From an uncultured virus (IMG/VR IMGVR_UViG_3300038428_000082) (taxonomy: Duplodnaviria; Heunggongvirae; Uroviricota; Caudoviricetes), in the IMG/VR virus record IMGVR_UViG_3300038428_000082: DNA of 64,000 nt; one strand, written 5' to 3'. A program made the position numbers and the translations under genes. Below are positions 56,179 to 60,097 of this stretch, in pieces. The notes under the pieces were generated by a model. The model saw only the letters and a list, made by a program, of their open reading frames with translations. It was not told the DNA's origin and did no database searches. Positions within the stretch are counted from its first letter, which is position 1. The number at the start of each line of letters is the position of its first letter.

Positions 56179-56268
56179 TGGTACCCCCGGCAGGACTCGA
56201 ACCTGCGATGCCTTTCGGCATAGACAGTTTAGGAAACTGTTGCGATGTCCATCTCCGCTCACGGGGGC
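56179..56268 (-). tRNA. tRNA with CCT (Arg) anticodon and long variable arm
   Basis: ACAGT-TTCCTAA-ACTGT; extra arm ATGCC-GAAA-GGCAT; ACCA end. Confidence 0.8.
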
Positions 56269-56278
56269 GTAAACTTGT

Positions 56279-57076
56279 TTATTTCCTTCCTAGCCTCCAA
56301 CCATCACAGAGGCGGTTAATAACTTCGGATGCCGCAATTTTGATTGCTACGCCATCTTTACATAACCAGCGCACAGGTGGTCTTTTTCTATTAGCTTCCC
56401 TCAAGGCTGCTATTACATGCACCGGTCGTGGTTTCCCACGCTTTGCCTTGGCTATTTTTTCACCAAAGCCTTCTGGCATTTTTTTGCCTTTATTCCAAGC
56501 CGAGGTTCTTCCTTTTAATGCTTCCCGCATTTTTTGCTTACTGGTATCGGAGTGTTTCCAGCCAGACTTGTGGGGAGCTTGTGGTTTTCCAGCTCTTCTC
56601 CTGTTTGATTCTGCAACAGCCTTTCTAGTGCTTTCTGGGACTGAGTGTCCCCTTTGGGAGGCACTCATCCTTTGTCTAGTCTGCTCTGAACAATGCTTAC
56701 CAAACATTGGATTTCTTTCGCCTTTGTTCGCCTCTTTGAATTTTTGACGAGTAGCCTCATTCGCAACTACCCCTCCGCCTCCAAGAGTTGAGTTGTATCC
56801 ATATTCAGGGTCGCACGCCTTAAACTTTTCAATATAGGAGACCTCAAGGGTATCCAATTCTTCTTTGGAGAAGGCAACATTTATACGATAGGCTTTGAAG
56901 CTACCTTCTCCATATTTTCGGATGGCATTATAGAAGTATGCACAATTTGTCCCACCCGCTTTGGCTCTCCTACAATGAGCCAGCCATCGCTCGTGCAGGG
57001 TTCTTATGGTTTGCCCGATATATACCTTGTTGTTGACTTGGTTTACGATAATGTATACTTCCCCATATGGCTCCAC
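56279..57076 (-). CDS. GIY-YIG endonuclease with NUMOD3 repeats (Seg-like)
   Basis: VYIIVN..YIGQT; GYNST; MFGKHCSEQTRQRMS. Confidence 0.85.
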   Translation of the reverse strand: MEPYGEVYIIVNQVNNKVYIGQTIRTLHERWLAHCRRAKAGGTNCAYFYNAIRKYGEGSFKAYRINVAFSKEELDTLEVSYIEKFKACDPEYGYNSTLGGGGVVANEATRQKFKEANKGERNPMFGKHCSEQTRQRMSASQRGHSVPESTRKAVAESNRRRAGKPQAPHKSGWKHSDTSKQKMREALKGRTSAWNKGKKMPEGFGEKIAKAKRGKPRPVHVIAALREANRKRPPVRWLCKDGVAIKIAASEVINRLCDGWRLGRK

Positions 57077-57109: not shown

Positions 57110-57661
57110 TCATTTATCAAGTACAACATTCCAGTATAGGTACGGTGCGTAATCTTTCCACTCGTTCCTTATCTTGCTGATATGCAGCTTGAAGTTGAAG
57201 CGGGGGTCCGTGGGCTTCGGCGTATAGGGCTTGCTGAGCAAGGTCATGCCCGCCTGCGCCGGGGTACGTCCGGCCTTTTCCTTGTTGCACGGCATACAGG
57301 CGATGGCAAGGTTGTCCCAGTCGGACTTGCCCTTCTGGCAAAGCGGGATGACGTGGTCAATCGTGTATTCCGAGGTGTGGACCACCTTGCCGCAGTACTG
57401 GCATGTTGCATTGTCACGCACTAACAGGTTGCGCCGGGTGCAGGGGACGGACTGCTTCTTACGGCGATGCCAAGCGTTGCGAACGACTATCACCCTTGGC
57501 ATGCCCATTTCAAAGGACGGTGAGTGCAGGACCTTCCCGCCCTCGTCCTCCTTGACAATCTTGGCACGGTCCTCGAACCAGAGCTTGACGGCGTTCTGCC
57601 AGCCCATGAAGCCCACGGGTATCCAGTTCATGTCTAGTACAAGTACGTCAGCGTATCCCAT
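57110..57661 (-). CDS. McrA-like HNH endonuclease
   Basis: VLVLD..RDNATCQYCG..TIDHVIP..WDNLAIAC..CN.EKAGRTP; AAGGAGG RBS. Confidence 0.85.
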   Translation of the reverse strand: MGYADVLVLDMNWIPVGFMGWQNAVKLWFEDRAKIVKEDEGGKVLHSPSFEMGMPRVIVVRNAWHRRKKQSVPCTRRNLLVRDNATCQYCGKVVHTSEYTIDHVIPLCQKGKSDWDNLAIACMPCNKEKAGRTPAQAGMTLLSKPYTPKPTDPRFNFKLHISKIRNEWKDYAPYLYWNVVLDK

Positions 57662-57679
57662 AGAGCCTCCTTATCTAAG

Positions 57680-58245
57680 ATTCGGAAAACCGTTAATCCT
57701 CGCTCGTTGCCACACCGAATGTGATCGATGGCTAATTGCCGGTAAGCCTGCGCACGACCCCTATAGCCGTCCATCGCTCTTCGCACTCCGGTATCCGCCC
57801 ATAGGACTAGGCGGCGAGTCAAGCTTTTAGGGTTTGGGCGGGGTGTAACCGGTCTTCTCTCAGGTTCATATCCATCGAATTGGCCGGTCTCATTGCCGTA
57901 CACCATACGGGTTGATGTGGTCGGGTTTCTTATGGTGTCTCACCCCGAGGCCCACTGCGTTGTCCTAACGCTCTCACCCCGCCCGAACAGCGCCCCTGTG
58001 ACCACGCCCTTAAGACATCGCCCCCGGTTATGTCAACTCACCAGAGACTTAGGTCGGTCAGGAGCACCAACTTAAACCCAACGGCGTGCAGCCAGCGTAC
58101 TGGCGGTTTGGCTTCGCTTTCTACGGGGTTAATGACCGGTCCCCCTCGTCGCCCGGAAGCCGCTTGTGCAGGCACGGTATCCCGATTTCTGCCACGACAA
58201 CCGTTCCCATCAGTCTTGCCGACCCTACGGGACCTTGCACGCCAT
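57680..58245 (-). ncRNA. large structured non-coding RNA (unidentified)
   Basis: No credible ORF; helices GGCGTGCA/TGCACGCC and GGGCGGGGTG/CACCCCGCCC plus many hairpins; GTGGTATTAC promoter motif at 58251-58260. Confidence 0.6.
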
Positions 58246-58284
58246 TCTTGGTAATACCACAGAGATTGAGAAACAAACGAATAA

Positions 58285-58629
58285 TTAAATTTCAGGATGG
58301 TGCTCCTTCCTGTGACAGTTAGAGCATAGTATTTCGCATTTTCTTATCTCAGCAAGGATTCGTTTCTTTCCCCAACCTTGGTTCACAGCTTGCCTTATTG
58401 ACATGTCTTTTTTGCTTGAATCTCTATGATGAAAATCTAAACATGCAGGATGATTTTCCGGGCAACGAGCACATTTTAGAGAGCGTTTGAACTCCTTGAA
58501 CCAATCTCTAATTTCTTTCCTTTGGTTCTTTGCTCGGATAAGATATGGCTCTTTGTGATTTTGATAATGTTTTCTCCTGTATGCTTTCATTTCTTCTTGA
58601 TGAGATGTTTTCCAAGCTTCTGTCGCCAT
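58285..58629 (-). CDS. HNH-like endonuclease
   Basis: CARC..LDFHH..KCEILCSNCHRKEH. Confidence 0.8.
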   Translation of the reverse strand: MATEAWKTSHQEEMKAYRRKHYQNHKEPYLIRAKNQRKEIRDWFKEFKRSLKCARCPENHPACLDFHHRDSSKKDMSIRQAVNQGWGKKRILAEIRKCEILCSNCHRKEHHPEI

Positions 58630-58704
58630 ACAATCCTCCAATATATGAGTTGCATAGCGTAGATTTGGAGACTCTATCTGCACCAAAAATTTACATTAGA
58701 ATCT

Positions 58705-58794
58705 TGGCAGGGGTGGAGGGATTTGAACCCCCAGTATCCCGAAGGAAGACGGTTTTGGAGACCGCTGGGCCGAACCAGATTGCCCGTCACCCCT
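58705..58794 (-). tRNA. tRNA-Trp(CCA) with long variable arm
   Basis: GCGGT-CTCCAAA-ACCGT; extra arm TCC-TTCG-GGA; GCCA end. Confidence 0.8.
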
Positions 58795-59350: not shown

Positions 59351-59941
59351 TCAGACGACCCCGGAATAATCTTTGCTTTTATTTCCCGGAACCCAATCCG
59401 CAAATAACCCAAGCTCCCTAACTTTTCGCATTGTATCAGCGATTAGTAACCACGCTTTGTAGGGCATATTTCCTCGAACAATGTTACATCTTGTGCAACA
59501 GGGAATTACGTTACTTTTCAAATGACCCCGCATGTTATCTAATCGGTCCAACCCAATGCGTAGTTCTCTTTGGGTTACTCCACAGTATCGGCAGCCAGTG
59601 GATATAAGAGCAGCTACGTAGTTCCGGTCAAGGTCGCAGGCAAACCCATGGCGTTTATCCCAACTCTTGCAGTCGTTTGTAACATGCCTTGCTTCGCCTT
59701 TATACCTTTGGGTGCTTAGAGTCTGTTTCCTTCGCTCGTAAACCCCCTCGGTCATTCCATGTCGAGGTTTCCAACGTTTGTTATGCTTATTAAAGCAAAT
59801 ACGGCATAGAAATCGGTAATACTTATTCCCATTAGACCAACGTGTTGGGAAGTTCTTACCGTCCTCAGTTAATGCCTTCCCACATTTTTTGCAGATGTGT
59901 GGAAGTCTTACATTCACTCCACCAACTTCTTGACTCTTCAT
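59351..59941 (-). CDS. HNH-like endonuclease
   Basis: CRYCG..GLDRLDN..GH..NVIPCCTRCN. Confidence 0.8.
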   Translation of the reverse strand: MKSQEVGGVNVRLPHICKKCGKALTEDGKNFPTRWSNGNKYYRFLCRICFNKHNKRWKPRHGMTEGVYERRKQTLSTQRYKGEARHVTNDCKSWDKRHGFACDLDRNYVAALISTGCRYCGVTQRELRIGLDRLDNMRGHLKSNVIPCCTRCNIVRGNMPYKAWLLIADTMRKVRELGLFADWVPGNKSKDYSGVV

Positions 59942-59985
59942 ACTAATAGATACTGAAGTCAGAAGATTGGTCGGAGTGATATTTT

Positions 59986-60060
59986 TGGTCGGGGCGAGAG
60001 GATTTGAACCTCCAACGACTTGCTCCCAAAGCAAGTGGGTTACCGTTACCCTACGCCCCG
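59986..60060 (-). tRNA. tRNA-Pro(TGG)
   Basis: CTTGC-TTTGGGA-GCAAG; ACCA end. Confidence 0.9.
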
Positions 60061-60097
60061 GCACAAGTTAGGCCGTTCAGCTACAGCCCGTAAACTT

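Follow-up and report, generated by a model that had tools for sequence, protein, structure and literature searches.

A modular structured RNA region as putative 5′ leader of an IshB-like HNH nuclease gene in the tRNA array of an uncultured peat phage

Results

A 623-nt gap without a credible open reading frame (ORF) precedes the gene for a 183-residue HNH nuclease in a 64,000-nt stretch of DNA (hereafter, the window) from an uncultured tailed phage (IMG/VR IMGVR_UViG_3300038428_000082), whose 140-kb virus record originates from peat. Gap and gene lie on the minus strand, inside an array of 19 co-oriented tRNA genes (ARAGORN) that flanks them on both sides. Comparison with other phages indicated that the gap consists of modules (D1 to D4) with separate evolutionary histories rather than of one giant RNA. 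The region is very probably a promoter-proximal, composite leader of the HNH messenger RNA. The complete explanation, in which module D2 additionally acts as the cis-regulatory core of this leader, is tentative, with a probability of roughly 0.45. An original prediction, made from the sequence of the window alone, had described the same region as a single structured RNA of about 570 nt with its own promoter. The elements of the locus are:

57662–58284, minus strand: gap of 623 nt without a credible ORF
58251–58260, minus strand: promoter-like motif GTGGTATTAC (extended −10-like, TGgTATTAC), recognized from its sequence and its position at the 5′ border of conservation
58083–58243, minus strand: D1, 161-nt multi-stem domain closed by GGCGTGCA/TGCACGCC, from a homologue and RNAalifold
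57985–58072, minus strand: D2, 88-nt core with helices P1–P4, from covariance model R1 and covariation
57836–57984, minus strand: D3, 149-nt multi-branch domain closed by GGGCGGGGTG/CACCCCGCCC, from sequence and fold
57673–57835, minus strand: D4, hairpins CCGCCUA/UGGGCGG and CGAUGG/CCAUCG followed by the last ca. 40 nt of the leader, from sequence and fold
57666–57672, minus strand: Shine-Dalgarno sequence AAGGAGG of the HNH gene, 4 nt ahead of its ATG at 57661
57110–57661, minus strand: IshB-like HNH nuclease gene (183-residue ORF)

Conservation, coding capacity, and folding of the gap

The sequence from 58260 to 57662 was also present in a second phage (L006/L016, records of 237 and 317 kb; hereafter, the L016-type phage), with 18 differences in 599 nt (97% identity). 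Over 20 kb, coding stretches of the two phages were 85–91% identical and tRNA stretches 94–99%; at 10% divergence, the probability of 18 or fewer differences was 4e-11. Identity was 53% in 58300–58251 and 96% thereafter, which placed the border of conservation at the promoter-like motif. At the opposite end, the block of 97–100% identity continued 63 nt into the HNH ORF. These first 63 nt were identical, and the remainder of the ORF was 60–82% identical per 50 nt (57110–57599 versus L016:1563–2049), a border that is equally well explained by a swap of HNH alleles. In protein P0005, the N-terminus of one HNH allele is joined to the body of another; together with the diverged HNH body, this mosaic points to frequent allele swapping with a junction approximately 63 nt into the ORF. 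Since conservation of the gap equalled that of the tRNAs, the body of the HNH gene, and not the gap, is the outlier.

The stretch 57662–58260 is non-coding. Its longest sense ORFs (90, 51, and 45 amino acids) showed no Pfam match at E ≤ 1, and a 2-nt insertion in the L016-type phage shifts the 90-residue frame. All helices and hairpins listed in the original prediction were found in the minus-strand sequence. Seven bases after GTGGTATTAC (58260–58251), the segment at 58243–58236 pairs with that at 58090–58083 to close the 161-nt domain, and 57984–57975 pairs with 57845–57836 to close the 149-nt domain; the hairpins GCCAG/CTGGC, GCGTT/AACGC, TCGGG/CCCGA, CCGTA/TACGG, CCGCCTA/TGGGCGG, and CGATGG/CCATCG were also present. 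The minimum free energy of the sense strand was −237.5 kcal/mol (z −1.41), with two of 20 shuffled sequences folding equally well, versus −206 (z −0.82) for the antisense strand. Folding energy by itself is therefore not beyond chance. It is the comparison with other phages, through conservation and compensatory changes, that lifts the region above chance. Sixteen substitutions separated the two phages, ten of them at positions unpaired in the minimum-free-energy structure, while four preserved and two broke a pair. Energies and G-U pairs favor the strand that is sense for the HNH gene.

A scan with Rfam 15 assigned no family to the stretch, either at the gathering score or at E ≤ 10, and returned only tRNAs and chance matches; for the homologous regions L095, L100, and L149, described below, no family was found at E ≤ 1. 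Neither ARAGORN nor the Rfam tRNA model detected a tRNA shape in 57662–58284, and a blastn search with the 623 nt against 50,697 GenBank phage records yielded no match. Together with the covariation in D1 and D2, these results agree with the earlier designation as an unclassified structured RNA region, for which a search for covariation had been proposed as a check.

Covariation and distribution of D2

D2 was the only module associated with the HNH gene in all four phage lineages in which it was found. A covariance model built from the window phage (R1) matched the window phage itself, the L016-type phage, the metagenome contigs L095/L100 (62.8 bits), and phage L004 (49 bits). Among 68 sources, R1 detected D2 in five and, apart from these, gave a single chance match (E 0.68). 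Diverged D2 homologues were approximately 67–72% identical. In an alignment fitted to the model, which comprised three lineages and from which the chance match L094 was left out, the three distinct sequences paired in 97.7% of cells, and 9 of 29 pairs had changed on both sides. None of 500 shuffles reached the observed pairing and changes, while slid controls yielded 1–3. Helices P1–P3 covaried, whereas P4 and a 19-nt stretch (CGAUGUCUYAAGGGCGUGG) were invariant. D2 is rich in G-U pairs, which fixes its strand. As evidence from sequence comparison, the covariation of D2 is good but not final. A candidate pseudoknot (CCUAAG/CUYAAGG) was rejected, as both of its sides were invariant except at Y, where a C weakens pairing.

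Further copies were searched for with sequence patterns. A 20-mer pattern identified six stretches in viral contigs, representing three phage lineages, and a 19-mer pattern identified 19 stretches in metagenome contigs, which upon reading were divided into ten real and nine chance occurrences. A gapped pattern yielded 11 stretches in viral contigs, five of them by chance, and 26 in genomes, all chance-like, so that no bacterial copy was found. Application of R1 to 68 sources, of the D1 model R2 to 34, and of both to five whole phage records revealed nothing new. Each module occurred as a single copy per record in the phage records G000, G001, and G002, and the modules were absent from two complete relatives of 455 and 463 kb.

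D1 at a second locus

The L004 phage carried a homologue of D1 at an entirely different locus (L149:1458–1621; G002:59257–59422), with 71% identity over 167 nt (E 2e-21). There, AGTATTGA is located just ahead of D1, and the ATG of an ORF for a PF01555 DNA methylase follows 12 nt after it. RNAalifold predicted 49 pairs for D1, 10 of which were kept via changes on both sides; in the closing helix, this applied to four of seven pairs. Model R2 found one copy each in G000, G001, and G002, and a D1 19-mer pattern in viral contigs recovered the same phages only. D1 thus appears to behave as a portable promoter-proximal cassette that is placed behind a like promoter ahead of different genes. The 12 nt between the closing helix and the methylase ATG (L149:1458–1635; G002:59257–59434) contain no Shine-Dalgarno sequence. 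The methylase of G002 had no match in G000 or G001, both of which are incomplete records.

The occurrence of D1 on its own, and the variability or absence of D3 and D4 described below, contradicted the original claim of a single RNA of about 570 nt. Compensatory changes in diverged copies of D1 (71%) and D2 (ca. 67–72%) also bear on the possibility that the stretch has no RNA function and that its similarity between phages derives from recent DNA exchange, by recombination or a mobile element, or from a decayed gene. Sharp identity borders at 58260 and at about 57599, mosaic HNH alleles, and the homing endonuclease genes on either side of the locus would suit such an origin. The diverged modules nevertheless retained their helices, and the outlier in identity was the HNH body rather than the RNA, whose identity matched that of the tRNAs. 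ORF lists and Pfam and PHROG searches revealed no repeats, transposase, or IS200/605 genes near the locus, and no ORF in the stretch had a family match. On these sequence comparisons, absence of an RNA function is already disfavored and seems extremely improbable.

Module composition of the four lineages

The window phage and the L016-type phage, which represent lineages 1 and 2, share the order D1-D2-D3-D4. In lineage 3 (L004, HNH protein 79% identical), tRNA-Trp is followed by two small ORFs, GGTATTAT, D2, a leader of about 40 nt, and the HNH gene; a CCCCUU/GGGGGG hairpin in this short leader covers the Shine-Dalgarno sequence. In lineage 4 (metagenome contigs L095/L100, HNH protein 76% identical), GTATTAT precedes D2, a shorter D3, approximately 450 nt of unrelated, GC-rich folded sequence, and the ATG. 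The D3 counterpart of L095 occupies the same position and retains the same 8-bp helix core (CCGGGCGGGGA/UCCCCGCCCGG), whereas D3 is absent from L004. D4 was found only in the window phage and the L016-type phage, although its last ca. 40 nt align with the L004 leader. Elsewhere in G000–G004, no copy was found of D3 or D4 of the window phage or of the 3′ ca. 460 nt of the L095 leader. D3 and D4 are taken to be lineage-specific expansions on the basis of this distribution. Module content among these close relatives ranged from 130 to 630 nt, and in the window phage and L095 other structures of 330–540 nt separate D2 from the Shine-Dalgarno sequence.

Between tRNA-Gln and the leader of L100 (L100:636–900, corresponding to L095 reverse strand 1–100), three T-arm-like stretches were observed that ARAGORN did not call; these may be degenerate or tRNA-like elements.

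A recurrent promoter-like motif ahead of the modules

In four of five cases, (G)GTATTAY was located 6–7 nt ahead of the first paired base of D1 or D2; the fifth case reads GTATTGA. The distance between this TATTAY-like hexamer (TATTGA once) and the first paired base of the first module corresponds to the spacing from a −10 element to a start site. The part of the original prediction that concerned a promoter of the RNA's own was thus borne out insofar as the motif recurs at the 5′ edge of modules in other lineages, whereas a sigma-70 scan called no promoter at the motif and found no −35 element. A promoter role of GTGGTATTAC is inferred from its sequence and recurrence. The gap and the HNH gene share one strand, and the promoter and terminator scan detected no terminator-like site separating the RNA from the HNH ORF on this strand, an arrangement in which the two would be co-transcribed.

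GTATTAT was also observed directly after tRNA-Trp in two phages (L004:2300–2320 and L006:1108–1125), ahead of small ORFs or spacer. This sequence may be a recurrent promoter of the phage group.

Contigs from RNA libraries

Twenty-four sequencing runs contained the stretch, six of them RNA libraries. Four RNA libraries (metatranscriptomes), a type of library that may contain DNA, were mapped as contigs, and in all four the stretch was partly covered. One contig of the L016 type (depth 39.3) spanned the leader from 58047 onward and entered the HNH gene, and another began in the upstream tRNA region, crossed 58260, and reached 58148. Short contigs identical to the window were found in three libraries (57838–58046, 57847–58042, and 57837–58013), and one contig covered 58079–58229, within D1. 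Positions 58048–58078 were bridged by no contig in any of the four libraries. Contig ends at 58042–58047 coincided with the invariant CUAAG|UCU junction of D2. Ends near 57837 coincided with the 3′ foot of D3 but adjoin a polymorphic site at 57835. Together, these contigs provide a weak hint of expression and processing.

Separate contigs for D1 and for D2/D3, with the unbridged interval between them, could also arise from a series of independent genes for small stable RNAs (D1; D2 with D3; perhaps D4) that are co-transcribed with the array and excised by host processing enzymes, the HNH gene being merely the next gene downstream. Such an organization would account for D1 standing alone at another locus, for contig ends clustering in three libraries each at 58042–58047 and at 57837–57847, for the location in a tRNA array, and for a degree of conservation equal to that of the tRNAs. 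It is nevertheless unlikely. No module is tRNA-shaped according to ARAGORN and Rfam, D2 occurred only ahead of this HNH subclade and never elsewhere, and in L004 it lies ca. 40 nt from the Shine-Dalgarno sequence. Moreover, one RNA-library contig links the leader to the HNH gene, and the contig end near 57836, beside polymorphic position 57835, is possibly an assembly break.

The contig ends within D2 could, alternatively, mark an RNA-processing element at which the transcript is cut at the CUAAG|UCU junction, whether by self-cleavage of a ribozyme or by a nuclease. Contigs from three studies ended there (at 58047, 58046, and 58042), and no loose ends were reported at this place; DNA runs contained 0.99 of the sequence words of the stretch, and the junction and the neighboring 19 nt are invariant across lineages. 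Rfam matched no ribozyme family, however; the signal given by ends of contigs is weak, and all three studies possibly belong to one campaign. A processing element is quite improbable.

The nuclease: a predicted PLMP-like fold and a Cas9/IscB-type HNH domain

The 183-residue protein matched Pfam HNH with an E-value of 1.4e-13. Its best partial matches in NCBIfam were IscB and Cas9d, for the HNH part only and below the cut-off (E ca. 1e-11). A profile of 62 family members searched against the Protein Data Bank (PDB) retrieved TbaIscB (E 1e-16) and Cas9d-type enzymes (ca. 6e-15), and in this search no sequence-level match covered the N-terminal PLMP-like part. Zinc cysteines and HNH residues were invariant in the family.

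An AlphaFold (AF2) model of the protein (pLDDT 85.8) was compared with known structures. Residues 66–149 of the predicted model resembled HNH domains of the Cas9d type (Z 10.0 and 9.4) and those of IscB (Z 6.6–5.9). Residues 4–66 aligned with residues 2–49 of IscB at a middling Z of 6.0 (root-mean-square deviation 1.9 Å, 48 aligned residues, 27% identity) and with residues 1–48 of a second IscB structure at a similarly middling Z of 5.7 (1.5 Å). The original prediction had set the protein apart from IscB for want of PLMP and RuvC motifs. The protein is indeed not IscB. The lack of PLMP applied only to the literal motif, at whose position PVGF is found and of which only P15 is invariant in the family; in the predicted model, residues 4–66 superpose on the PLMP domain of both IscB structures. 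The modelled protein thus combines a PLMP-like fold with a Cas9/IscB-type HNH domain, an architecture that has been described for IshB. The name IshB is reportedly due to Altae-Tran et al. in 2021. In passages of three publications (PMC11610941, PMC10734217, PMC13284715), IshB is described as PLMP plus HNH in about 180 amino acids, which matches the present protein of 183 residues with PLMP-like and then HNH parts and no RuvC. It differs from those descriptions in reading PVGF at the literal PLMP position and in being encoded among tRNAs and homing endonuclease genes rather than in an IS200/605-type insertion sequence. In a literature search, no paper with IshB biochemistry was found, nor anything on structured RNA ahead of HNH genes in phage arrays.

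Placement of the nuclease family and co-occurrence with the RNA

At E ≤ 1e-3, 290 homologues of the nuclease were retrieved, many of them on contigs of 200–450 kb. In 67 distinct viral loci (L012–L091 and L148), the gene had a tRNA within 1.5 kb in 40 cases and three or more in 28, nearly all co-oriented. The HNH gene frequently started 19–43 nt behind a tRNA and often ended a few nt before the next, a distance that leaves no room for an RNA of the kind described here. The cultured Tunturiibacter phage Tunturi_5 encodes a homologue with 42.6% identity (locus L166:2379–3081) inside an array of 11 tRNAs, where it starts 22 nt behind one tRNA-Thr and ends 7 nt ahead of the next. This placement suggests that the nuclease has an array-linked role or that processing of tRNAs releases its mRNA.

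Co-occurrence of the RNA with this HNH clade, a check named in the original prediction, largely failed. While D2 was present in five of 68 sources, R1 found it in none of ca. 55 loci of more distant relatives, in a search that covered loci other than those of HNH proteins P0002–P0006 and P0009–P0016 (67–82% identical). HNH genes preceded by D2 all belonged to the closest subclade (75–100% identity). Upstream of the next relatives (L017, L024, L148, and L020), small ORFs or short spacers but no RNA were found, and retrieval of HNH-centered loci added no RNA-bearing lineage. The distant relatives without RNA indicate that, as a rule, the nuclease gene is not preceded by an RNA of its own.

These distributions weigh on the possibility, related to the ribonucleoprotein suggested in the original prediction, that the RNA is an omega-RNA-like partner, which would bind the PLMP-like domain and serve as scaffold, guide, or both for cleavage by the HNH domain. 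A PLMP-like fold close to that of IscB (Z 6.0 and 5.7), an HNH domain whose nearest relatives are those of Cas9d and IscB, and a location directly upstream of the ORF, as for the omega-RNAs of IscB and IsrB, are in line with such a partnership. Moreover, the PLMP domain of IscB contacts terminal hairpins of omega-RNA, as stated in passages of PMC9640706. Opposed to it are the lack of a match to HEARO or any other Rfam family, the predicted start of the L004 and L095 RNAs at D2, which leaves no 5′ guide, and the absence of a guide-like variable segment across the four lineages. The ca. 55 relatives without RNA, many of them 19–43 nt behind a tRNA, the variation of module content between 130 and 630 nt among close relatives, and the absence of IS200/605 genes nearby point in the same direction. 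A leader whose D2 core forms the RNA subunit of an OMEGA-like particle, with a 183-residue PLMP-HNH protein relying on 130–630 nt of RNA, is therefore very improbable. If true, it would be the most RNA-dominated Cas9 relative so far, acting on DNA or on tRNA-array RNA and using its RNA for substrate binding and perhaps for targeting.

Neighboring genes in the tRNA array

On the minus strand, the locus consists of tRNA-Trp, a small AT-rich HNH gene, the 623-nt gap, the 183-residue HNH gene, a GIY-YIG/NUMOD3 gene, and two tRNA-Arg genes. The neighbors, which lie outside the RNA, are:

58705–58794, minus strand: tRNA-Trp(CCA), the last tRNA ahead of the locus (ARAGORN)
58285–58686, minus strand: small AT-rich HNH homing-endonuclease-like gene (PHROG 3106, E 7e-23)
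56279–57076, minus strand: homing endonuclease gene with GIY-YIG and NUMOD3 (Pfam)

The tRNA-Trp ahead of the locus is also found in L004 and L016. The GC content was 0.55–0.60 across the gap and the 183-residue HNH gene, versus 0.39–0.40 in the upstream small HNH gene and 0.43–0.47 in the downstream GIY-YIG gene, which agrees with the earlier remark that the HNH gene has a backbone-like composition, unlike AT-rich mobile endonucleases. Neither flanking gene had a counterpart in the L016 locus: the small HNH gene was absent there, and nothing aligned to the GIY-YIG gene, the blastn alignment stopping at window position 57114. Given their AT-richness and the missing L016 counterparts, both genes resemble homing-endonuclease insertions of recent date, and the small HNH gene represents an insertion when compared with the L016-type phage.

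Including these two, three further endonuclease genes interrupt the array, the third being endonuclease VII-like (59351–60064). Furthermore, tRNA-Trp(CCA) at 58705–58794 and tRNA-Arg(CCT) at 56179–56268 measure 89–90 nt, and their variable region carries an insertion of ca. 13 nt. Such a feature is unusual in tRNAs of these isotypes and also occurs in L004:2211–2299. The L016-type phage has two ordinary 76-nt tRNA-Trp genes in place of the long form.

Discussion

Taken together, the evidence is best accommodated by a model in which the stretch serves as a long 5′ leader, rich in structure, for the message that encodes the IshB-like HNH nuclease. The locus lies within the tRNA array of an uncultured jumbo phage from peat. 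Transcription would most likely start 6–7 nt after the TATTAY −10-like element, which would place the first helix of the first module at the 5′ end of the RNA. The leader would then be a chain of independently evolving folded modules, D1-D2-D3-D4, among which D2 would be a cis-acting control element that sets translation or stability of the HNH message. Its location at the predicted 5′ end in two lineages, its invariant 19 nt, and the hairpin on the Shine-Dalgarno sequence of L004 make D2 resemble a binding site for a protein or ligand. Its partner might be a small ligand or a protein, possibly the PLMP-like domain of the nuclease itself, a candidate because of the RNA-hairpin contacts made by the PLMP domain of IscB (PMC9640706). 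As would be expected of a cis-regulatory leader, the region is located in a putative 5′ untranslated region (UTR), on the sense strand, and contains a conserved core with covarying helices. The coupling of this core to the Shine-Dalgarno sequence would be direct in L004, where the covering hairpin immediately follows D2, and would have to span 330–540 nt in the window phage and L095.

Several observations weigh against a regulatory leader with D2 as its core. The RNA-library contigs may carry DNA, and one of them enters from the upstream tRNA region and crosses 58260, so that the promoter is only putative. The sigma-70 scan was silent at the motif. Covariation was derived from two to three lineages only, and the D2 alignment was fitted to its model. 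The distance between D2 and the Shine-Dalgarno sequence in two lineages is unlike that of a classical riboswitch or operator. Finally, D1 standing alone, as well as the separate short contigs of D1 (58079–58229) and D2/D3 (57838–58046), would fit separate stable RNAs equally well.

If the RNA is only a leader, it will be mainly of specialist interest. D1 and D2 would nonetheless constitute at least two undescribed structured RNA motifs from phage tRNA regions, of narrow distribution and with covariation support, and the locus illustrates that such ornate stretches need not be single molecules but can consist of portable modules strung together. IshB-like PLMP-HNH proteins emerge as regular, co-oriented residents of the tRNA arrays of large phages, including a cultured phage of Acidobacteriota. 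The locus further raises the questions whether PLMP domains bind RNA outside IscB and IsrB and whether omega-RNAs grew from autoregulatory leaders.

Small stable RNAs that are still unexplained are encoded in the tRNA regions of phages T4 (species 1 and 2) and T5; they are short and partly tRNA-like. The modules described here are likewise folded RNAs among phage tRNA genes, but none has the shape of a tRNA, and one is linked to a specific gene. HNH endonuclease genes are the most widespread coding sequences in tRNA arrays, and one group of arrays contains a gene annotated as Cas9, according to parts of the survey of Morgado and Vicente (2018; PMC5966550). The setting of those HNH genes is the same as that of the present one, while the corresponding parts of the survey describe no PLMP-like domain or leader RNA.

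With HEARO, the omega-RNA of IscB and IsrB, the present region shares a structured RNA of hundreds of nt directly upstream of a small nuclease gene, whose product combines a predicted N-terminal fold of the PLMP type with an HNH domain like those of Cas9 and IscB. It differs in the absence of a match to Rfam HEARO (RF02033), of RuvC, bridge helix, WED, and TI domains, of an IS200/605 context, and of a recognizable guide, and in that most homologous nucleases occur without RNA. GOLLD and ROOL are also large, ornate, non-coding RNAs encoded by phages beside tRNA islands, a setting already noted in the original prediction and matched here by the 19 same-strand tRNAs of the window. GOLLD combines a conserved and a variable part, as described in passages of PMC12286853. 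Neither Rfam model matched, however, and the present elements are narrowly distributed (four lineages) and form separable modules in a 5′ leader ahead of a gene. Because the models of these families were tried and did not match, the region is assigned to none of HEARO, GOLLD, and ROOL. Riboswitches and protein-binding leaders resemble it in having a conserved junction element at the start of the 5′ UTR, covarying helices, and an invariant core, as well as, in L004, a hairpin on the Shine-Dalgarno sequence; they differ in that no known class was matched and in the 330–540 nt that separate D2 from the Shine-Dalgarno sequence in two lineages. Among these systems, the region would work most like a structured regulatory leader, while it resembles GOLLD and ROOL in its setting and omega-RNAs in its position.

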